Positions 9,100-62,385 of a stretch of DNA of 64,000 nucleotides are shown in pieces. Numbering within the stretch: position 1 is the first letter of the stretch; every line of letters starts with the position of its first letter. Position numbers and translations under genes: made by a program. Location: NCBI GenBank assembly GCA_963701085.1, contig OY969561.1, forward strand, positions 1,120,001 to 1,184,000, given 5' to 3'. The notes beneath the pieces were generated by a model, which did not search any database, had not been told where the DNA came from, and saw nothing but the letters and a program-made list of their open reading frames with translations. Origin of the DNA: an uncultured bacterium (GTDB lineage: Bacteria > Babelota > Babeliae > Babelales > Vermiphilaceae).

Positions 9100-10606
9100 C
9101 TATAAAAATTTTATACATCCCATAATAAATGTAGTTCAGGTTTTGCGAGCAGTTGTTGTTCTTATCTCATTTTTGTTTTCAATAAAATCATTGTAATATT
9201 TGCGGCTATATTTATATTTGTTGGCGATGATCGTTTCGATATTGAATTCATAATACATATGTGCTATGAATGTGATCAGTTCTTTTAACAATGGCATACC
9301 ATCAGCGCTTTATTGTTGCAAAAGATGTGTGAATAATGCGCATTGGGTATGGGGTGAAGTAAGGCATAGAAAGGCATGCATTACTTGTTCTTGATTGGTT
9401 ACAGCTTTGTATAGTGGGTGATTTTTCTATTGTATAAAAGTTGTATAGTTTAGTGTATTTTTCACACGCAAGATCCACTGCTCTTTTACCATCTTTATTT
9501 CTGGAATGTATGTTCAGGCCATGAGATGTGAGAAACGGTAAGTATAGTTCGAACTTGGGAGCAACAATAGATGTTATTACTGCGCATAAATGTAGTTGAG
9601 AGTTTTTCTGTGTATCTTTTGTATGGATGAGTTTGCTTGCAATAAAGGGATTATCAGCAATAAAAGAATAGAATAAATTTAAATCATCATTATAAGCAGA
9701 AAAAAAATGAATTAAAGGCGTTGTTTGGTAATTATTGCTTTTGATTGTTGGATTGGCGTCTTTTTCTATGAGTAGTTTAATTACATTGAGTTGCTTTCTA
9801 GAGCACGCCATATGTAGAGCTGTACTGCCATTATAATTTTGGTGATTGATGGTCCTGGTATCATGAGAAAGAAGCAATTTAACACAATCTTCTTTTCCGT
9901 TACCTGCTGCTATCTGGAGTGGAATATTCCCTGATTTGTCAGATATATTTGCAGCTTGAGGCGCTTTACTGAGCATTGATGTAACTGTTGTGGTTAATCC
10001 TAGTTCACATGCTACGTGCAGTGGGGTGCAGCCTTTTGAGGTGCGTGAATTGGTATCTATATTTTCATGGGTGATTAATAATTGGTAAATTTCTTCATTG
10101 ATACTTCTCTCACTTGCCAAATAAAAAAGTGACTTTCCATCACTGTTTATGTAATTAACATCTGCATCTGCTAATAATGCATCTCGCACTGCTCTTGTAT
10201 CGTTCTTTGCTATGCCTTGAAGACACAAGTGTGTTGCATCAGAGGGGTTAGAGATATTTTTTTGCGTTGTTTCCATTGCATGGGATGTGTGGGGGATGCA
10301 TAAGAAAAGAAAAGCGAGTGATGATAGATGGTATAAACTACTATAGTTGCTCGCTTGAAATTTTTTTCCTGCGCTCGTTCTGATGCTTCGACATTGCTCA
10401 GCAGTGAACACCCGCCTGCCCTCCGAAGCCTCGGCGAAGGACGGGTTGAAGAATATCTTAGAGCGCTCGAAGACATCATCTTCAACCCAGGTTCCACTCC
10501 GTTTCACTCGGGTACCCATCAGAAGGAACTGAAGATGGGTGTAACTGACGAGCGCTAGAGAAGACATGGATAGGGCAAGTTTAATGGTTGTCATCATATA
10601 TTTCAT
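9100..10606 (-). pseudogene. Ankyrin-repeat protein, paralog of 10603..11826, disrupted near the 3' end
   Basis: TPLHVA/TALH repeats. Versus the paralog: frameshift near 9412, in-frame TAA at 9310-9312, further indel near 9162. Repeat cluster in frame in the N-terminus. Confidence 0.7.
10368..10556. repeat. Nested palindromic repeat cluster in the 5' region of the ankyrin gene
   Basis: gcgctcgttctga...cctgccctccgaagcctcggcgaaggacgg...gagcgctcgaagac...gggtacccatc...gatgggt...gacgagcgc. Confidence 0.8.
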
Positions 10607-11826
10607 GAAGCACTCCATAATAAATGTAGTTCAGGTTTTGCGAGCAGTTGTTGTTTTATCTGGTTTTTGTTTTCAATATAATCGTCGTAATATTTTTTGT
10701 TATGTTTATATTTTTTGGCAACGATTGTCTCAATATTGAGCTCATAATAATTGCGTATAATGTGGACTAACAATTCTTCTGGCAGTGTATGGCCATTGGC
10801 ACTTTGTTGTTCCAACATTGTTTTGAATAATGCGCATGGTGTGTGTGGTGAAATAAAGCGTAAGAAAGCATGCATTACTTGTTCTTGATTGGTTACATCT
10901 TTATACATGTTGTGTAATTTTTCTATTGTATAAAAGTTGTATAGTTTAGTGTATTTTTCATACGCAAGATCCACCGCTCTTTTACCCTCATTATTTCTGG
11001 CATTTATATCCAAGTTGTGGGATGCAAGAAATAATAAGTAACTATCGAATTTAGGTTCGAGGATGCCTTGTATTGTTGCACATAAATGAAACTGATTGTT
11101 TTTTTGTTTATCTTTTTTATGGATGATTTTTTTTGCAACAGAGGGATTATCAGCAAGAAAAGAATAGAATAAATTTAAATCATCATAACAAACAGAAAAA
11201 AGACGAGTTAAAGGCGTTACTTGATAATTGTTTTTGATTGTTGGGTCGGCATCTTTTTCTATGAGTAGTTTGATTGTGTCAAGTTGTCTTACGTTGCATG
11301 CTTGATGTAGAGCTGTAAAGCCACCGTAATCTTGGTGATTGCTGGTCCTGATATCATGAGAAAGAAACAATGTAACACAATCTTTTTTCCCGTGATATGC
11401 TGCCACATGGAGTGGAATACTCCCTCCTCTGCTGCATATGTTTGCAGTTTGAGGAGCTTTACTGAGCATTGATGCAACTGTGGTGGTTAATCCTAGTTCA
11501 CATGCTACGTATAATGGAGTGGCGCTATAGGAGTTGCGTGAATTGATATCTATATTTTCATGAGTGATTAATAATTTGTAAATTTCTTCATTACTATTTT
11601 TCTCACATGCTAAATAAAAAAGTGACTTTCCATCACTGATTATGTGATTAACATCTGCACCTGCTAATAATGCAATTTTTACTTGGTTTGGATTGTTTTT
11701 TGCTATGCCTTGAAGGCACAATAGTGTTGCATCAGAGGGGTTAGTATTTTTTTGCGTTATTTCCATTGCGTATGATGTGTGGGGGATACATAAGAAAAGG
11801 GAGATGACCAAAGTAATATGTTTCAT
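10603..11826 (-). CDS. Secreted ankyrin-repeat protein with C-terminal F-box/PRANC-like motif
   Basis: Signal peptide; TPLYVA, IPLHVA, TALHQA repeats; TLPEELLVHII near C-terminus. Confidence 0.88.
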   Translation of the reverse strand: MKHITLVISLFLCIPHTSYAMEITQKNTNPSDATLLCLQGIAKNNPNQVKIALLAGADVNHIISDGKSLFYLACEKNSNEEIYKLLITHENIDINSRNSYSATPLYVACELGLTTTVASMLSKAPQTANICSRGGSIPLHVAAYHGKKDCVTLFLSHDIRTSNHQDYGGFTALHQACNVRQLDTIKLLIEKDADPTIKNNYQVTPLTRLFSVCYDDLNLFYSFLADNPSVAKKIIHKKDKQKNNQFHLCATIQGILEPKFDSYLLFLASHNLDINARNNEGKRAVDLAYEKYTKLYNFYTIEKLHNMYKDVTNQEQVMHAFLRFISPHTPCALFKTMLEQQSANGHTLPEELLVHIIRNYYELNIETIVAKKYKHNKKYYDDYIENKNQIKQQLLAKPELHLLWSAS

Positions 11827-11951: not shown

Positions 11952-12013
11952 CCTACTCCGCTCCTCCTACGCATAAAGCTTCGGAGGACACGGTAAAACT
12001 ACGAATGGCAGGC
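11952..12013. repeat. Family-B repeat nested in another family-B copy
   Basis: cctactccgc[tcctcctacgcataaagcttcggaggacacgg]taaaactacgaatggcagg. Confidence 0.7.
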
Positions 12014-17135: not shown

Positions 17136-19610
17136 TTATAATTCTTTATTCATTACTTGTTGCGTATCAGTGACGCGCGCAAGCGTATGTTCTTCAAATC
17201 CTAGCGTAATGAGTGTATCAATAAAATCCATTGGTTTAAGTCCAATTTCAGCTGCTTGGTGGAATAAGCATGTTGCTGGTGTGAGTCCGGGTAATGTGTT
17301 ATTTTCAAGAATAACAACGCGTTCTTTTTTTGTTGGGCTTTGCGTGGCTGTTTTGGTAAAAACAGTCAATGCGTGAATATCCTTTGCATTGTAGTGTTGT
17401 AAAAGCGCGTTCCATAATGCGTTGTACAAACTCGAGTGTTGCGTGTGGTAGTGGTGCGGGTGTTTGATTTTCCCCAGCACCGGGTAAGAATTTTTCTTCA
17501 ATAGAAAGTATTCCTGCAGCAGAAACCGCCTGGCTTGGTGGTAATGCACGCGGATGTTCATTACCAATAACTCCCACGGTGAGTTCCATGCCGGTAATAC
17601 ATTCTTCTATTAATACACAATCTTTTTCTTGTAAAACTTTATTAATTGCGACAATTAATTCTTCATCATTGGTTACTTTTTGCACCATTACGCTGCAGCC
17701 ATCATCATGTGGTTTAACTATGAGTGGGTATGCAAGACTATCTTTTTCTTTATCCGCACTCTTCGATACATTTTTGCAAGCAAAAACACTCAGGGCGAGC
17801 GGGAGGGGCAGAGTATTTTCTTTCTGTGAAGTTTTTTCTCCCCGCTCGCCCTGAGTGTTCTTCGTAGCTTCAGCGGAGAAGAATGTATCGAAGGGTGCAA
17901 CCCACGTATTTTTCATAATCAAAATATTCTTTGGAACATCAAAGCCATGCGCAGCAAGTAGTTGGTTTGCTTTATACTTATTCATACACAACGCGCTTGC
18001 AAGCACCGATGATCCGTTATACGGCAAGCCAAGCATTTCTAGTGTGCCTTGTACTGAACCGTTTTCACCTTCACCTCCATGCAGCGCAATAAATACAAAA
18101 TCAGCAATAGATGATAAATCACCCCATTTAATTTTTTGTGATGGTTGCAACAGTTCAACAATTTCTTTAGTAGAATTACGCACGAGTTGTGATTGCGTTA
18201 AAATGTAGAGCTCTAAACTATCGCTGACAAAAACAGGAATTGGTTCGTATTTGTGGGGAGATAGTTTATAAAATACGTTGCGGCCAGAATCGAGTGATGT
18301 TTCTTTTTCATTTGATTTGCCGCCGAGTAGTATTGCAACACGATTTTTTTGTGTATTCATAGTTGGAGATTCCAGTTTTTCTTGAGTAATAATCGTTTCC
18401 AGCATGTTGTATTGTTGGAGTTCTGTTTCAATAATATGGTTAATAAGTTGCGCAGGGCTCATATTAATTTCTGCTGCTTGATTAAAAATATAACTTGATG
18501 GTGCCATGCCAGAGAAGGTGTTAGGATCGATAATAACAACAGTGCCATCGTTGGTTACAAATCCATCGATACGTCCCATATTGCTCAGCTCTAATGCATG
18601 CATTACGTTAATACATGTTTGTTGAATACGTGCAGTAGTTTTAGCGCTACAGCGAGCAGGTGTACGTTTTACACCACGGCCAGGCATGTATTTTTGTTCG
18701 TAATCAAAAAAGCCTATTTCAGTGTGCGCAATGCTTTCTGTGGGAGGTAATGCAAAAAATTCACCTGTCCTGTGATCTGTTAATACAATGCAGGTAAATT
18801 CCATTCCAACAATTTTTTCTTCGATAAGTACGCGCTTTTTTTTGTTAGGATCTATACAGCACGCTTTTTTGAGTGCCTGTTCAAGAGTGCTGCTGTTTGC
18901 GATAGAAATACCAAGGCTGGAGCCTTCATTATAAGGTTTAACAACAAAATGATCAGCATTGTAGCGTGCATCGTTTTTATTCTTTAGCGCTCGTCCTGAA
19001 CTTGTTGAAGGATTTTCTTCGAGCGCTCGAGGATATCCTTCAACAAGTTCAGGACGAGCGCCGGAACATAAAGATTGGGCAGAATTATTGCATTCTGGAT
19101 AATGCCCGCATTAATAAGTCGGTCAAAAATATTGTTTTTGTAGTGCTCAAAATTATCAACTTCATATGGTTCAACGGCGATAAAGCGTGGTGTTGCAATG
19201 CCCGCATTATTGAGGAATGTTTTGAGTACAATTTTATCATTGCGTAATGCACTTGCAAGAACTCCTGAACCAAGATAGGGAATGCCAATAATTTCTAAAA
19301 AACCTTGCAATATACCATCTTCAGCGTAACGGCCATGTTGTGCAATGTAGATAAAATCAACATGATTTTTAAGATCATCCCATGCAATAAGTTCTGCTTC
19401 ATGAGTAAGGCGATGTTCAAAATCAGTTGTTTTTCCACGATGTAAAAAATGCCAAGGAAGTATGTATATTTTTGCATCACTTTGAAATAGTGGAATAACT
19501 GAATAGCGTGATGTATCAACATAATCACAGATTGTTCTGCCGGAGTTAAAAGAAACTTCTTTTTCAAGGGATTTGCCGCCCATAAGGACGCCAACGCGTA
19601 GTTTTTGCAT
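17136..19610 (-). CDS. ddl: D-alanine--D-alanine ligase with two tandem Ddl units (two frameshifts, two repeat inserts)
   Basis: Unit 1: GGKSLEKEVSFNSG, HGRYAEDG, VKPYNEGSSLG, RIDGF, DPNTFSG. Unit 2: GGKSNEKETSLDSG, HGGEGENG, VKPHDDGCS, RIDCF, ENNTLPGLT. Frame changes near 18990 and 17355. Confidence 0.88.
17756..17899. repeat. Inverted family-A pair (with nested B-like loop) in frame in ddl unit 2
   Basis: cttcgatacatttttgcaagcaaaaacactcagggcgagcggg ... cccgctcgccctgagtg...gtatcgaagggtgc. Confidence 0.88.
18986..19063. repeat. Family-A palindrome inside ddl unit 1
   Basis: gcgctcgtcctgaacttgttgaaggat...atccttcaacaagttcaggacgagcgc, near-perfect palindrome. Confidence 0.9.
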
Positions 19611-43389: not shown

Positions 43390-43824
43390 ATGATAATGCG
43401 CGTGGTAACTTTTTTTGTTGATGAACTGTTGTGGATGATGACGTGGGGTTCTTATCAGCTGACGTTGGGTCTTATTTTTACTTGGTTTATGTTTATGCTT
43501 ATGGGTCGCATGCGGATGCTTCCTGCATTAATTTTAACCGTAGGGTCATATGCATTTGCCATTGTCACTTATTTTGCATTTGTTTCTGTATTACTGATTA
43601 ATTTTTTTCAATGGAAATTCGTTGGTGGTGGTACGCCCAATGTGTTTAATCCTCTTGACGCTTCATTACTTTTAGGTGGCATTTTATCGGTGCTGCAATT
43701 ATTTTTTTATATGATTATTAATTATTGGAGACCTTTTTTGGTCACTCATTTTTTTATACTTTCATTAATCAGTAATATATCAGCAGCATTTTGTGGCTCT
43801 TTTTTTATTAAGCTTACGTTGTAA
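43390..43824 (+). CDS. Hypothetical multi-pass membrane protein
   Basis: About four hydrophobic helices. Confidence 0.7.
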   Translation: MIMRVVTFFVDELLWMMTWGSYQLTLGLIFTWFMFMLMGRMRMLPALILTVGSYAFAIVTYFAFVSVLLINFFQWKFVGGGTPNVFNPLDASLLLGGILSVLQLFFYMIINYWRPFLVTHFFILSLISNISAAFCGSFFIKLTL

Positions 43825-43860
43825 TGATGAGATTGTTAAGAGATTAGTAGAATACCAAGA

Positions 43861-44639
43861 TAAGATTTAATCCCCAGCTTAACGCCGGGGACCCCTCCTT
43901 CGCGTAAAGCTACGGAGGGCAGGCCCACCTTCACTTCGTTACGGTTTTCTTTTCGCAAAGGGGTCTTGCAACCCCTCTGCACTCGTGCACAAGCTTCCAG
44001 CTTGACCTCTTACGGGTTAAAAGCAAGGTCGCTGATCCAGCCTGCTCCTGATCCCGCGACGGCTGGATGGCGACCGAGCCCCATGTCATTTTAAGAAAAA
44101 TGCCAGAAACTCGCTGGTAACCCTTCATGTACTCACAATATTTCGCACCCTTCGATACATTTTTGAAGACAAAAACACTCAGGGCGAGCGGAAAAAAATT
44201 CAAATCCTGTTCTCCCCGCGCTCGTCCTGAGCCTGTCGAAGGATTTCCTCGAGCGCAAATTTAAAAATAAGTACCTACACATTTCGCATGATGGTTTAGG
44301 CTGTGAAGCCCTGCGAACAGACTGTGGCCTGAATTCGTCCTCCTTCGCCAAGGCTTCGAAGGATTCTTTATTTGGGTACCCGACTGTAGCGAAGCGTAAG
44401 TTGGGTTAAAAATGATCGGGGGAATCCAAGGGAACCATTTGCCTGCCCTTCGTAGCCTTGGCGTAGTAGGGTGCACGAGTGCAGAGGGGTTGCAAAACCC
44501 CTTTGCGAAAAGAAAACCGTAACGAAGTGAAGGTGGGCCTGCCCTCCGTAGCTTTACGCGAAGGAGGGGTCCCCAACGGCCTGCCCTCCGTAGCTTTATG
44601 CGTAGGAGGGTCTAAGTTGGGGTCTTTGTTTTAATCTTA
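43861..44639. mobile_element. Composite inverted-arm element, copy 2 (core inverted relative to copy 1)
   Basis: 104-nt arms 43887-43990/44471-44574 with one mismatch; cores match copy 1 in reverse complement. Confidence 0.75.
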
Positions 44640-44651
44640 TCTTCTTCCCCT

Positions 44652-45974
44652 TTAATCTCTACTCAAAATCATCTTCATCTCTTTTTTATAATTCTCAACT
44701 TGCGGCTGATCAAAAGGATTCACGTGCAATAAAAAACCAAGATACATAATTTCTATCATTTTAATCTGCATAAATTGACCAAGATAATACGCAGATTTTT
44801 CAGGTAACATAACAGATACAAAAGGGCGGTTATCATTATGATATGCACGTTTTGTTCCTTCTAAAATAGCATCCATGATTGCGGTGAGGGGTTTTCCTTG
44901 AATGTGCGGGACAACTGCTTCAAATTCTTCATAGTTTGGAACAGTCACATTCGATTTGTTTTGTCCTACTGAAACAAACGTTGTAAATCTGTTATACGGC
45001 CCAGCCAAATAAAGTTGCGCAACTGAATGTAAATCAGTGCTGCCCAAAGATATTGTTGGTAAAACGCCGGTGTTGATCAGTTCTCCGGTTATATCATAAG
45101 CTTTGCCAACACTTTCAGCAGATAGTTGACGGTACCATGCGCCAAGGTTTGCAAGTGCAACAGAAAAAATGAATGTGTCATGAATAATATTGCCACGTTT
45201 ATAATGCGTTGCAATGAGTGCTGCACTTAATGCGGCAGGGTTATTACTGAATTGTTTGTGTGTGCTGAGTGAAAATCCGCTTTGCGCACCTGTGCAGAGA
45301 TTTTCAATATCAATCCCCAAAAAACAAAGAGGAAATAGTCCAACGGCGGAAAATAGTGAATAACGCCCACCAACAAGTTTTGGAACGGCAAGGTGTATAA
45401 ACTCTTCTTGTTGTGCAAGTTTCCACAGCGCAGAATCTTTATCAGTTGTTGCTACAACAAAGTTATGATAATTGTATGGGCGATGGCTTTTGAGAATTTC
45501 AAGGAATATCTCAAAGTTAGCAATGGTTTCTGTGGTGGTGCCAGATTTGCTAATGACGTTGAGAATGATATTGTTACCTGTTGCCAGTTCCCGCTCAACC
45601 AACTGCGCAATATTATTAACGTGATCAGTATCCACCGTATCAACAAAATAAACATCAATATCATAATGTTCGTTATAAAACTTTCCTCGTAACGCTTCCA
45701 GCACAGCAATGGTGCCCAAATTAGATCCCCCAATACCAATAACAACCAATGTTGTTGGGTTGAGGGATTTTGCCGTTTTTACGGCCATAGTGACTGTTTT
45801 TATCAGTTCGCCATCAAATGGCAGGTTTATTGATGCATAGTCGGTGTCATAATCATAGGTTCGGGCGTTATAAATACGTTCAATTTCTGTTTGCAGCTTT
45901 GCCTGTAACGGTTCTAGAGCTTCCTGGGCGACCAGACAGCTATTTTCGTGGTCAAAATGGATACTTTTCATCAA
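44652..45974 (-). CDS. pgi: Glucose-6-phosphate isomerase
   Basis: VIGIGGSNLG, ISKSGTTTET, VGGRYS, QLSAESVGK, DLHS, NPFDQPQVENYK. Confidence 0.95.
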   Translation of the reverse strand: MMKSIHFDHENSCLVAQEALEPLQAKLQTEIERIYNARTYDYDTDYASINLPFDGELIKTVTMAVKTAKSLNPTTLVVIGIGGSNLGTIAVLEALRGKFYNEHYDIDVYFVDTVDTDHVNNIAQLVERELATGNNIILNVISKSGTTTETIANFEIFLEILKSHRPYNYHNFVVATTDKDSALWKLAQQEEFIHLAVPKLVGGRYSLFSAVGLFPLCFLGIDIENLCTGAQSGFSLSTHKQFSNNPAALSAALIATHYKRGNIIHDTFIFSVALANLGAWYRQLSAESVGKAYDITGELINTGVLPTISLGSTDLHSVAQLYLAGPYNRFTTFVSVGQNKSNVTVPNYEEFEAVVPHIQGKPLTAIMDAILEGTKRAYHNDNRPFVSVMLPEKSAYYLGQFMQIKMIEIMYLGFLLHVNPFDQPQVENYKKEMKMILSRD

Positions 45975-61695: not shown

Positions 61696-62385
61696 ATGCA
61701 GATAACTACTTCGCAACAATCCTCCTACGCCAAGGCTACGGAGGACAGGCAAAATAAGCCATTACATGATGAACATATTCTTGTAGTGTGCCGTTCACAT
61801 TTTTTTACCGCAGATACGCCAGCATGGCATGGGTTAAAAGAGGTTAACTTTGATGATTACATGCACATTATTAATCATCGCAAAGAGTTTCATCCACGTT
61901 CCATTATGGAAACAGATCCAACATACAAACAAATTATTCCCTATCTTATTTTTGAGCATGATAATCATTATTTTTTGATGCAGCGCAAATCAGATGCGTC
62001 AGAAAGCAGATTGCGTAATAAGTTAACTCTTGGCATTGGCGGGCATATTCGTGAGGAGGATATGTCCTCCTTCGCCGAGGCTTCGGAGAACAAGCAAGAA
62101 AATTCATTATTTGCATGGGCAACGCGTGAGTTTCATGAAGAAGTAAATTATGCAGGTAATTTGAAAGTACTGCCTTTGGGAATTATTAATGATGATTCAG
62201 ATGATGTTGGCAAGGTGCATATTGGCTTTGCATTTTTGCTACGCGGTGATTCATCTGATATCAGCATTAAATCAGAATTAAAAAGTGGCATTCTTGTTTC
62301 TTTGGATGAATGTATTGCGCAAAAAGAATGTATGGAAAGTTGGAGCCAGTTTGTACTAGAATTTTTACAACAACAGAAACAATAA
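61696..62385 (+). CDS. NUDIX-family phosphoesterase with two in-frame family-B inserts
   Basis: ETDPTYKQIIPY, GIGGHI, REFHEE, INDD, VGKVHIG. Confidence 0.85.
   Translation: MQITTSQQSSYAKATEDRQNKPLHDEHILVVCRSHFFTADTPAWHGLKEVNFDDYMHIINHRKEFHPRSIMETDPTYKQIIPYLIFEHDNHYFLMQRKSDASESRLRNKLTLGIGGHIREEDMSSFAEASENKQENSLFAWATREFHEEVNYAGNLKVLPLGIINDDSDDVGKVHIGFAFLLRGDSSDISIKSELKSGILVSLDECIAQKECMESWSQFVLEFLQQQKQ
61720..61749 (+). repeat. In-frame family-B insert
   Basis: tcctcctacgccaaggctacggaggacagg = SSYAKATEDR. Confidence 0.9.
62065..62094 (+). repeat. In-frame family-B insert
   Basis: tcctccttcgccgaggcttcggagaacaag = SSFAEASENK. Confidence 0.9.

Follow-up and report, generated by a model that had tools for sequence, protein, structure and literature searches.

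A 30-nucleotide hairpin repeat, probably mobile, inserted in unrelated genes of a Vermiphilaceae genome and present in many bacterial phyla

The DNA analysed here, called the window below, is a stretch of 64,000 nucleotides (nt) from an uncultured bacterium of the family Vermiphilaceae (Babelota; assembly GCA_963701085.1, contig OY969561.1, positions 1,120,001 to 1,184,000 of the forward strand). It carries several copies of a 30-nt imperfect palindrome, some lying between genes and others inside genes for unrelated proteins, where a copy occupies ten codons and leaves the reading frame open. The best explanation, which is probably correct as a whole, is that this element is a tiny non-autonomous mobile (selfish) hairpin that was inserted at many places, was filtered by selection, and moved as single-stranded DNA with the help of functions supplied in trans. 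There is little doubt that the copies are insertions, that these are precise, that they have been filtered for frame and length, that the stem covaries, and that the element is widely distributed. That it travels as a single-stranded hairpin, cut and joined by an enzyme which it does not itself encode (of the HUH/Y1 type or another), is put forward more tentatively.

The genome is a single contig of 1,198,634 bases with 37% G+C. The 30-nt unit can be written as YCCNNC-TWCGCYRARGCTWCG-NNGGRC-ARG. An original prediction, made from the letters of the window, had placed this repeat and its decapeptides at five coding sites, and another copy between genes at 27914. All six were confirmed: the consensus given there matches the window at these places with 0-3 mismatches, the peptides are as proposed, and 100 dinucleotide shuffles of the window contain no match to the 30-letter consensus. 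Four further intergenic copies had been listed, of which the one near 24700 is a true, nested 30-mer, whereas a 31-nt sister form accounts for those near 11960, 43895 and 44540. Copies not listed before are a diverged one in the gene for D-Ala-D-Ala ligase (Ddl; 17854-17883, minus strand) and an inverted pair at 44338-44367/44442-44471. A position weight matrix (PWM) built from the copies finds 87-90 sites in the genome and 0-1 in shuffled genomes. After removal of four half-hits due to nesting there are 88 non-overlapping copies, with 50 between genes, 36 inside called open reading frames (ORFs) and 2 at ORF edges. Genes were called with a method of our own, based on ORFs and codon usage, which gave 1,092 ORFs covering 86% of the genome; 'coding' means inside a called ORF unless stated otherwise. 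Because called ORFs take up so much of the genome, the copies are still enriched between genes. Information content falls to background just before position 1 and again past position 30-31, so the edges of the unit are sharp. The host genes and element copies of the window are the following.

61696-62385, plus strand: Nudix-fold gene, an ORF of 229 amino acids from an ATG at 61696, with two element copies
61720-61749, plus strand: element copy in the Nudix-fold gene, SSYAKATEDR, 0 mismatches
62065-62094, plus strand: element copy in the Nudix-fold gene, SSFAEASENK, 1 mismatch
31657-32904: GspK-like gene of a type II secretion operon, host of the next copy
32047-32076, plus strand: element copy in the GspK-like gene, SSSAKASADR
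21017-23077: PriA gene, host of the next copy
22631-22660, minus strand: element copy in PriA, SYYAKASKDR
9302-10618: ankyrin ORF, host of the next copy
10415-10444, minus strand: element copy in the 5' part of the ankyrin ORF, PSFAEASEGR, within a 'type I' composite repeat
17305-18804: Ddl gene, host of the next copy
17854-17883, minus strand: diverged element copy in Ddl, PWM hit of 24 bits, sense frame 0
24743-24802, minus strand: intergenic nested pair, with a 30-mer (24755-24784) between positions 18 and 19 of the outer copy
27914-27943, minus strand: intergenic copy within a 'type IV' repeat; for the outer repeat there is a paralogous empty site
44338-44367, plus strand, and 44442-44471, minus strand: inverted pair of 30-mers in a repeat-rich intergenic region, found by PWM
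11962-11992, plus strand: 31-nt sister form (loop GCRTAAAGC), intergenic
36202-36232, minus strand: 31-nt sister form, intergenic
43893-43923, plus strand: 31-nt sister form, intergenic, within a ~100-nt inverted repeat
44538-44568 and 44580-44610, minus strand: two copies of the 31-nt sister form, intergenic

The description of the unit as a palindrome is right in that it can form a hairpin with a covarying stem, but the palindrome is imperfect, with a 3x3 internal loop and an unpaired tail. Each copy is exactly 30 nt long, with a mean G+C of 61% compared with 37% for the genome. The outer stem consists of 6 bp (positions 1-6 with 21-26) that are variable and compensated, and the inner stem of 3 bp (positions 10-12 with 15-17). 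Between them lies the internal loop (positions 7-9 opposite 18-20), unpaired and with TWC on either side. The last four nt (27-30) form an unpaired 3' tail, CAGG, CAAG or CACG (CARG). The conserved core is TWCG-GCYRARGC-TWCG, and the loop is the most conserved part of the element. Among the genome copies, pair 1-26 is C-G and T-A equally often (35 each), T-A (53) outnumbers G-C (22) at pair 4-23, pair 5-22 has 45 C-G, 16 A-T and 16 A.A, and 56 C-G and 29 T-A occur at the inner pair 12-15. Pairing of the outer stem is about equal in copies within ORFs and outside them (5.06 vs 4.94 of 6 pairs). Neither the Nudix locus nor 43700-44800 has an Rfam family.

The Nudix-fold protein has no match in Pfam or NCBIfam, and its name is correct by predicted fold: an AlphaFold model from a 19-sequence alignment reaches a predicted local distance difference test (pLDDT) score of 83.7, and Foldseek matches it best to 3e57, Tm1382, a putative Nudix hydrolase (E=1.9e-15, template-modelling score 0.86 on the target). 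Orthologues occur in 40 of 41 related genomes (0.8-1.7 Mb each), and 19 of them were aligned with the window protein. The comparison bears out the predicted ten-residue insertions, since insert 1 (SSYAKATEDR, residues 9-18) is missing from 19/19 orthologues and insert 2 (SSFAEASENK, residues 124-133), in the loop preceding the REFHEE Nudix helix, from 17/19. At the DNA level, empty orthologues read GAT ATG/CAA GAA AAT where the window has GAT ATG, the 30 nt of insert 2, and CAA GAA AAT, that is, an exact insertion of 30 nt at ATG/CAA with no duplication of 2 nt or more. Insert 1 is also an exact 30-nt gap relative to the orthologues, where a 3-nt duplication is possible because the site is within a run of CAA codons. 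At the insert 2 site of the related genome G002, one copy is nested in another, both antisense, and in G004 a nested insertion of 69 nt is found 3 nt further on. These are different insertions from the one seen here, and the same Nudix loop has therefore been hit independently in three species. The G002 orthologue has, in addition, a nine-residue insertion at residues ~30-40 (RLRQGFDGQ), which is the element in sense frame 2. Contigs from three public runs (lake water, soil, freshwater), among which the source sample may be included, match the Nudix region together with one or other of the inserts without any difference.

The module had been supposed to be probably helical. In the predicted structure, insert 1 is part of a disordered N-terminal tail (pLDDT about 40, no secondary structure), and the supposition finds weak support in half of insert 2, at a low pLDDT of 64-66: residues 120-128 are helix, 129-137 coil, and the Nudix helix occupies 138-149. 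To judge from this model, ten extra residues at either place should do little harm.

In PriA, the copy SYYAKASKDR sits between the 3'-DNA-binding domain and the helicase domain, and is missing from 4/4 of the closest orthologues (73-78% identity). PriA has other irregularities nearby, namely a 9-residue tandem duplication, VTLTDE... / VTLTNE..., just past the element (window 22540-22660, residues ~134-158) and, further upstream, a separate insertion of ~10 residues, KTKTLRMSGDE, which orthologues do not have. The copy in the GspK-like gene is in a variable linker after a conserved AIAQL, and of 11 genus members, 5 have an element-type peptide at this site and 6 lack one. The name GspK is weakly founded, on an NCBIfam hit of 20 bits (cut-off 130) and the F and G genes of a type II secretion system (T2SS) upstream. 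In Ddl the copy is the central cassette of a larger 'type II' repeat, with flanks common to many such repeats, and it lies between the N and C domains (Pfam matches at 155-265 and 346-486). The ankyrin copy, which had been counted among the coding insertions, is a doubtful case. It lies in the first 92 residues of the ORF, whose paralogue and orthologues align only from about residue 92, and residues 47-92 match only other copies of the composite repeat. Translation of this copy is doubtful because the N-terminal stretch lacks a homologue and matches only the composite repeat.

Across the genome, 27 host ORFs were scanned against Pfam and 20 match a family, including intact-looking housekeeping genes (UvrD, PheT, DnaX, a penicillin-binding protein). 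Copies in or between Pfam domains are read in frame 0 in UvrD, a methyltransferase, iPGM (twice) and DnaX, in frame 1 in PheT, an M3 peptidase and a penicillin-binding transpeptidase, in frame 2 in PfkB, and antisense in DprA. Those of UvrD, PheT, the penicillin-binding protein, the M3 peptidase and PfkB lie within the domains themselves. The gene for iPGM, the cofactor-independent phosphoglycerate mutase (genome 914262-915995), is split into two same-frame ORFs by a single in-frame stop near 914991, and both halves carry element copies; the stop could reflect a pseudogene, an error or a recoding event. Another host is an ORF of 4,385 residues (genome 416965-430122), with a collagen-like repeat match, long internal repeats and the element at its extreme 5' end, which sits within a region of diverged tandem paralogues (388-430 kb).

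The distribution of copies within ORFs is strongly non-random in orientation and frame. Thirty are sense and 6 antisense, and 23 of the 36 read S-S-F-A-K-A-S-E-D-R in sense frame 0 (binomial p=3e-10 against one in six). Of the remainder, 3 and 4 copies are in sense frames 1 and 2, and 2 and 4 copies in antisense frames 0 and 2, respectively. The same frame in unrelated proteins, as claimed at the outset, is thus what most of the copies show (23 of 36), but four other frames occur. When only the 16 copies validated by Pfam domains or orthologues are considered, 10 are in frame 0 (p=5e-5). The translated consensus has no stop in any of the six frames, and five of these are seen in copies. Length is constrained as well. 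A structural pattern search allowing any loop length counts 23 copies of the 30-nt form in ORFs and 21 outside them. For the 31-nt sister form, whose loop has an additional base, the corresponding counts are 0 and 18 (Fisher p=3.6e-5 for 30 vs 31 nt; a value of 6e-6 was also computed for the length filter). Forms of 29 and 34 nt add 0/4 in ORFs, and a single 35-nt 'coding' hit is unlike the family. Only frame-preserving copies persist in genes, and the inserts are therefore probably read by the ribosome, not removed or bypassed; to this extent, on sequence evidence, the coding inserts are probably translated. The proposed likeness to Rickettsia palindromic elements (RPEs) is upheld for the behaviour of the element, a DNA repeat inserted into unrelated conserved genes, where it adds 10 residues that orthologues lacking the repeat DNA do not have.

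Empty sites provide information on the mode of insertion. A script looked for other places in the genome where both 14-nt flanks of a copy occur. Such a paralogous place exists for 32 of the 88 copies, and for 14/88 the flanks abut exactly (gap 0), so that insertion was precise, with no duplication or loss of the target. For example, ...AACAAGTT/CAGGA... is found in at least 8 empty copies of one outer repeat, and elsewhere the 30-mer lies between the same flanks. For the nested pair at 24743-24802, at least 8 un-nested outer copies represent exact empty sites. The genome has four self-nested copies, always between positions 18 and 19 (GCT/TCG), and one further nested copy between positions 11 and 12. 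A 60-nt nested pair occurs in almost identical form in both DnaX and iPGM, and this pair must therefore itself have been copied. No left-flank motif is conserved among the copies, and in 59% the element is directly followed by C. Insertions are also found in the loops of other palindromic repeats.

These larger repeats have features of their own. The 'type II' palindromic repeat, ...CCTTCGATACA (cassette) CACT CAGGRYGAGCGG..., is seen at 44140-44195 of the window and at many sites across the genome; its cassettes are interchangeable hairpins of 15-31 nt, including short T-rich hairpins, the 30-mer and the 31-mer. Because some cassettes share the stem of the 30-mer yet have a 4-nt loop, the core may be gained or lost inside existing hairpins. 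The 'type I' composite repeat is at least 130 nt long, has the 30-mer at its centre, and is present in about a dozen copies (for example at window 10380-10560 and at genome 150821-150952 and 627229-627357). It lengthens the 5' ends of several ORFs, which encode ankyrin, TPR and DUF2608 proteins, and gene callers will probably mis-set the starts of such ORFs. Two inverted composite repeats of ~100 nt (43892-43990 and 44472-44580), each with a 31-nt sister element, flank a repeat-rich intergenic region of 480 nt upstream of the gene at 44652-45974. In the public runs, one low-depth contig (run X3) has 32 other letters in place of 44338-44475, and another contig has a 30-mer copy at the centre of the outer repeat, at 44165-44170; at the likeness threshold of 85% used, both could come from other organisms.

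The element is not confined to the host lineage. The exact 15-mer core is present in 23 of the 41 related genomes (9/10 other members of the genus, 6/14 other genera of the family, 7/16 other families of the order), and a control with the reversed pattern gives 0 in every one. A scan of one genome per prokaryote species, using a pattern with 20 fixed bases, returns at least 121 stretches from at least 12 phyla, where ~1 match is expected by chance at equal base frequencies. The 80 matches listed with titles include Patescibacteria of many classes, Alphaproteobacteria (six Bradyrhizobium records, Caulobacter, Azospirillum, Rickettsiales), Bdellovibrio, 'Deltaproteobacteria', Verrucomicrobiota, Kiritimatiellia, Planctomycetota, Omnitrophota, Elusimicrobia, Armatimonadetes, Acidobacteriota, Bacteroidetes, Ignavibacteria and Anaerolineales. 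Flanks are unrelated between the cross-phylum loci, and isolate genomes (Bradyrhizobium, Bdellovibrio) are among the carriers. Pairing is retained at positions that the pattern left unfixed: pair 1-26 is kept in 113 of 119 cross-phylum copies, pair 4-23 in 102 and pair 5-22 in 105, and the tail is CAAG or CAGG in 95/119. In a set of 150 copies from viruses and across phyla, 89 of them distinct, 93.5% of cells are paired compared with 82.6% in shuffles, and the covariation score is 0.256 vs 0.080, with 0/500 shuffles as high and all slid registers far lower.

Whole-genome counts of a 16-mer core with up to 2 mismatches also exceed those of the reversed control, with 61 vs 7 in Bradyrhizobium, 31 vs 5 in Armatimonadetes, 17 vs 0 in Babeliaceae, 13 vs 1 in Bdellovibrio and 6 vs 0 in Saccharibacteria. 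In Bradyrhizobium the 30-mer lies inside the loop of another palindrome, and 30 viral contigs of IMG/VR carry the element. Five genomes of Patescibacteria (0.6-1.1 Mb) have 5-14 cores each (control 0). A copy is inside a long ORF in 8 of 15 regions from these bacteria, and 7/8 of the host ORFs have a Pfam match, the eighth being an ORF of 497 residues without one. LeuRS is the host in two genomes, where the sites differ and one falls within the editing domain, and further hosts are a ribonucleotide reductase and a lamin-tail/PKD protein; a GT4 glycosyltransferase, Dus and a methyltransferase carry the element in antisense reading. The in-frame phenomenon is therefore not special to the Vermiphilaceae genome studied. 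A search for one stem variant among PLSDB plasmids, INPHARED phages and 5,426 E. coli genomes gave nothing near-identical, a weak negative at thresholds that would miss other variants.

As a mobile hairpin, the element would insert precisely and without target duplication at many kinds of site, among them the loops of other palindromes, the middle of existing copies of itself, and genes for proteins. Being ten codons long and stop-free in six frames, it can enter a gene without shifting or cutting short the reading frame. Selection would then keep copies in tolerant places, such as tails, linkers and surface loops, and mostly in the mildest reading, S-S-F-A-K-A-S-E-D-R. Given such a filter for tolerance, the recurrent decapeptide would be a translated by-product, not a functional module. 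A single-strand HUH mechanism is favoured because insertions are precise, free of duplication, and often in unpaired hairpin loops, as is expected of single-strand HUH transposition (IS200/IS605). Part of the discussion of REPINs (PMC3116915) was also used for this comparison with single-strand insertion.

A number of observations weigh against a mobile hairpin of this kind. Even at E<=10 the genome has no match to Y1_Tnp (PF01797)/RAYT, and RVT_1, the TnpB zinc ribbon, DDE_Tnp_1 and rve are likewise without a match in it; it holds only three tyrosine recombinases, and there are no identical long repeats resembling an insertion sequence (IS), its long repeats being diverged paralogues. With no recognisable enzyme candidate in the genome, the copies are either relics or moved by an agent not recognisable here. 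Y1 genes are found in 4 of 10 relatives from the genus and do not track the element counts, and 5 of the 7 genus genomes without Y1 have at least 8 exact cores. Divergent Y1-like ORFs (~180-280 residues, 20-48 bits) occur in 5/5 of the Patescibacteria genomes, one to five in each, and were rejected as mobilisers since no element lies beside any of five such loci in four genomes. The hairpin itself is weak. DNA folding of six window copies gives -0.1 to -5.5 kcal/mol with z-scores of -2.2 to +1.0, and other registers compete; as far as sequence can tell, the stem is supported by covariation, not by folding energy. Copies show no bias in replication strand (41 leading, 47 lagging), a bias that is usual for single-strand transposition of the IS200/IS605 type. 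Orientation tracks transcription, even between co-directional genes (21 to 10), and the core is near-invariant across phyla, which is unusual for selfish repeats; both allow a host function. Lastly, no empty-site variant was seen at the Nudix sites among the run contigs, where cover is thin and perhaps from the source strain.

Minimal IS200-like elements do exist in the relatives G007 and G010 (571 and 656 bp), with at least 3 copies in G007, up to fourteen Y1 matches in G010, and none in the genome studied. As a source of the 30-mer they were also rejected, since their terminal hairpins are unrelated to it, a further point against the reading. Two other candidates were set aside: the region between inverted copies at genome 56335 and 60320, which encodes YggU, T2SS-F and MutS-like genes and no transposase, and a dispersed 2-kb repeat, which encodes a BNR-repeat protein.

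The near-invariant core, with stems that vary under compensation, would fit a conserved binding partner, and hence a hairpin maintained by the host after the manner of repetitive extragenic palindromes (REPs), acting in mRNA stability, termination or protein binding, spread by recombination between repeats, and present in coding regions as a side effect. The orientation of copies (30 vs 6 in genes, 21 to 10 between co-directional genes), the many copies that are interchangeable central cassettes of larger repeats, and the lack of a transposase in the genome would agree with this. However, solitary copies with unique flanks in Nudix, PriA, UvrD, PheT and LeuRS could not be placed by homologous recombination, the same Nudix loop has been hit three times, most copies have no T run after the hairpin, folding energy is weak, and there is no Rfam family, so this explanation appears unlikely. 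Another that dispenses with a dedicated transposase is the capture of abundant small hairpin DNA, or of its copy made from a master locus, as filler at breaks or stalled forks, by repair or template switching. Precise insertions without target duplication, no conserved left-flank target, the favouring of unpaired loops in other hairpins, and a reduced genome without a transposase are all as such a process would predict, and the weak preference for C after the element (59%) could reflect microhomology with the CARG tail. But filler should be partial or heterogeneous, and apart from nested copies it is always the same 30 nt with sharp ends; we know of no source of free hairpin DNA, and RVT_1 reverse transcriptases were not found in the genome. 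Filler capture is accordingly judged improbable.

The dominance of one frame (23/36) might be taken to mean that the decapeptide is itself a functional module, a helical linker or signal, spread in the manner of exon shuffling under selection on the protein. This has been largely refuted and is very improbable: 50 of 88 copies are intergenic, five frames are read here and antisense in Patescibacteria, conservation is at the DNA level with covarying stem bases that alter the peptide, the Nudix inserts lie in disordered or low-confidence regions, and orthologues function without the decapeptide. The insert could also be absent from the mature protein, cut from the mRNA or bypassed by the ribosome, for which GC clusters in Magnusiomyces mitochondria offer a precedent (in the part of PMC8811140 consulted). 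Length would then not matter, yet the share in ORFs is 23/44 for the 30-nt form and 0/18 for the 31-nt form, which leaves such removal with hardly any probability. As the genome is probably a metagenome assembly, and its closest records are metagenome-assembled genomes, an assembly or sequencing artefact may be considered, but identical contigs in three public runs, the core in 23/41 related genomes, the element in complete isolate genomes, and frame-preserving placement in conserved genes make this explanation negligible.

If the mobile hairpin is accepted, the lower size limit of mobile DNA becomes a single 30-nt hairpin, and an element of ten stop-free codons would have a harmless way to colonise genomes that are almost all coding. 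The contrast between the 30- and 31-nt forms would represent a natural experiment on selection against frameshifts. REP-like repeats are usually lineage-specific, so a near-identical core in distant phyla would be unexpected for them, and which shared factor recognises the core would become testable. Insertions would also yield spurious 'hypothetical' peptides and extended ORFs that mislead gene callers (as at the start of the ankyrin ORF), and would inflate apparent protein divergence in Patescibacteria and Dependentiae. A bolder proposal, and a rather doubtful one, is a pan-bacterial 'nano-transposon', in which one core moves in at least a dozen phyla without a transposase of its own or of a known specific family. 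Its movement would depend on an activity that is common to many hosts and recognises the conserved core, and these hosts would range from Patescibacteria and Dependentiae through Bradyrhizobium and Planctomycetota to phage contigs. No mobile element known would then be smaller or more widely distributed, with 10-residue insertions continuing in the essential proteins LeuRS, ribonucleotide reductase, PriA and UvrD.

The element behaves like RPEs, REPs and mitochondrial GC clusters and appears to be a member of none of these. Searches of open-access text found no description of the core DNA string or the peptides, the figures and supplements of PMC3733652 being outside that search. RPEs are ~150 bp long, with ten families described from Rickettsia; they are palindromic, lie in frame in unrelated housekeeping genes of an intracellular bacterium with a reduced genome, where they encode a peptide compatible with the fold, and also occur between genes (PMC10969869, in part). 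The present element resembles them in its in-frame insertion into unrelated conserved genes, its absence from orthologues, its occurrence between genes and its host, a bacterium with a reduced genome. It differs, as far as descriptions of RPEs allow comparison, in being 30 nt, about five times shorter, and in having one conserved core across many phyla.

According to the text of PMC3733652 consulted, REPs are imperfect palindromes of 20-40 nt, in high copy number and with an unpaired GTAG or CGTC tag; some lie inside genes, often for replication or repair, and the CGTC type is described without a linked transposase. Copies of REPs may insert into or beside one another (PMC3116915, in part). 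The 30-mer is likewise a short imperfect palindrome of high copy number (88 in 1.2 Mb) with an unpaired tag at one end. Its tag, however, reads CARG, or CYTG on the opposite strand, and differs from both GTAG and CGTC, it is not predominantly extragenic in the sense of that name, with 41% of copies (36/88) in ORFs, and unlike the REPIN-RAYT system it has no RAYT or Y1 gene in the genome. Nor is it REPIN-like, because only 10/88 copies have an inverted partner within 400 nt. Its stem and loop architecture differs from that of four CGTC families, as these are described in the text of PMC3733652, and the 'large GCGG/CCGC-type loops' mentioned there for Bradyrhizobium REPs may be this element nested in a REP loop.

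The element is very small, has a covarying hairpin and nests in itself (four cases here, one in G002), features it would share with the small dispersed repeats (SDRs) of Nostoc. These, reportedly described by Elhai et al. in Genome Research in 2008, are said to be hairpins of 21-27 nt with compensatory changes, nested in their own copies and in other repeats, and to have been proposed as the smallest mobile elements. They reportedly occur only in cyanobacteria, as several unrelated families, and in-frame peptides are said not to be stressed. On that definition, the present element would differ from SDRs in being found beyond cyanobacteria and in adding in-frame peptides to conserved genes.

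MITEs, or miniature inverted-repeat transposable elements, have inverted repeats at their termini, duplications of the target site and a parent IS. Examples such as QMITE of Coxiella, Correia and ERIC are described as small and non-autonomous and can fuse in frame with genes (PMC10969869; PMC5896051; both in part). The 30-mer is also a small non-autonomous repeat found in frame within genes, but it has no terminal inverted repeats of that kind, no target-site duplication (14/88 exact empty sites), no parent IS, and no transposase of the five families searched. The GC clusters of yeast mitochondria, to be compared together with repetitive elements that form hairpins in other mitochondrial genomes, are short GC-rich palindromes, mostly intergenic, that occur in frame in var1 and are regarded as transposable (PMC8811140; PMC2800124); their terminal repeats are read as target-site duplications and their loops change fast (PMC8811140), according to the parts of these sources consulted. 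Here too a GC-rich palindrome (61% vs 37%) in a compact AT-rich genome makes in-frame coding insertions, but the element has no duplication, its loop is the most conserved part, and its hosts are bacteria of many phyla, not organelles. Relative to all of these systems, the new points are the size of the element, its orphan status, and a near-identical core in many phyla.

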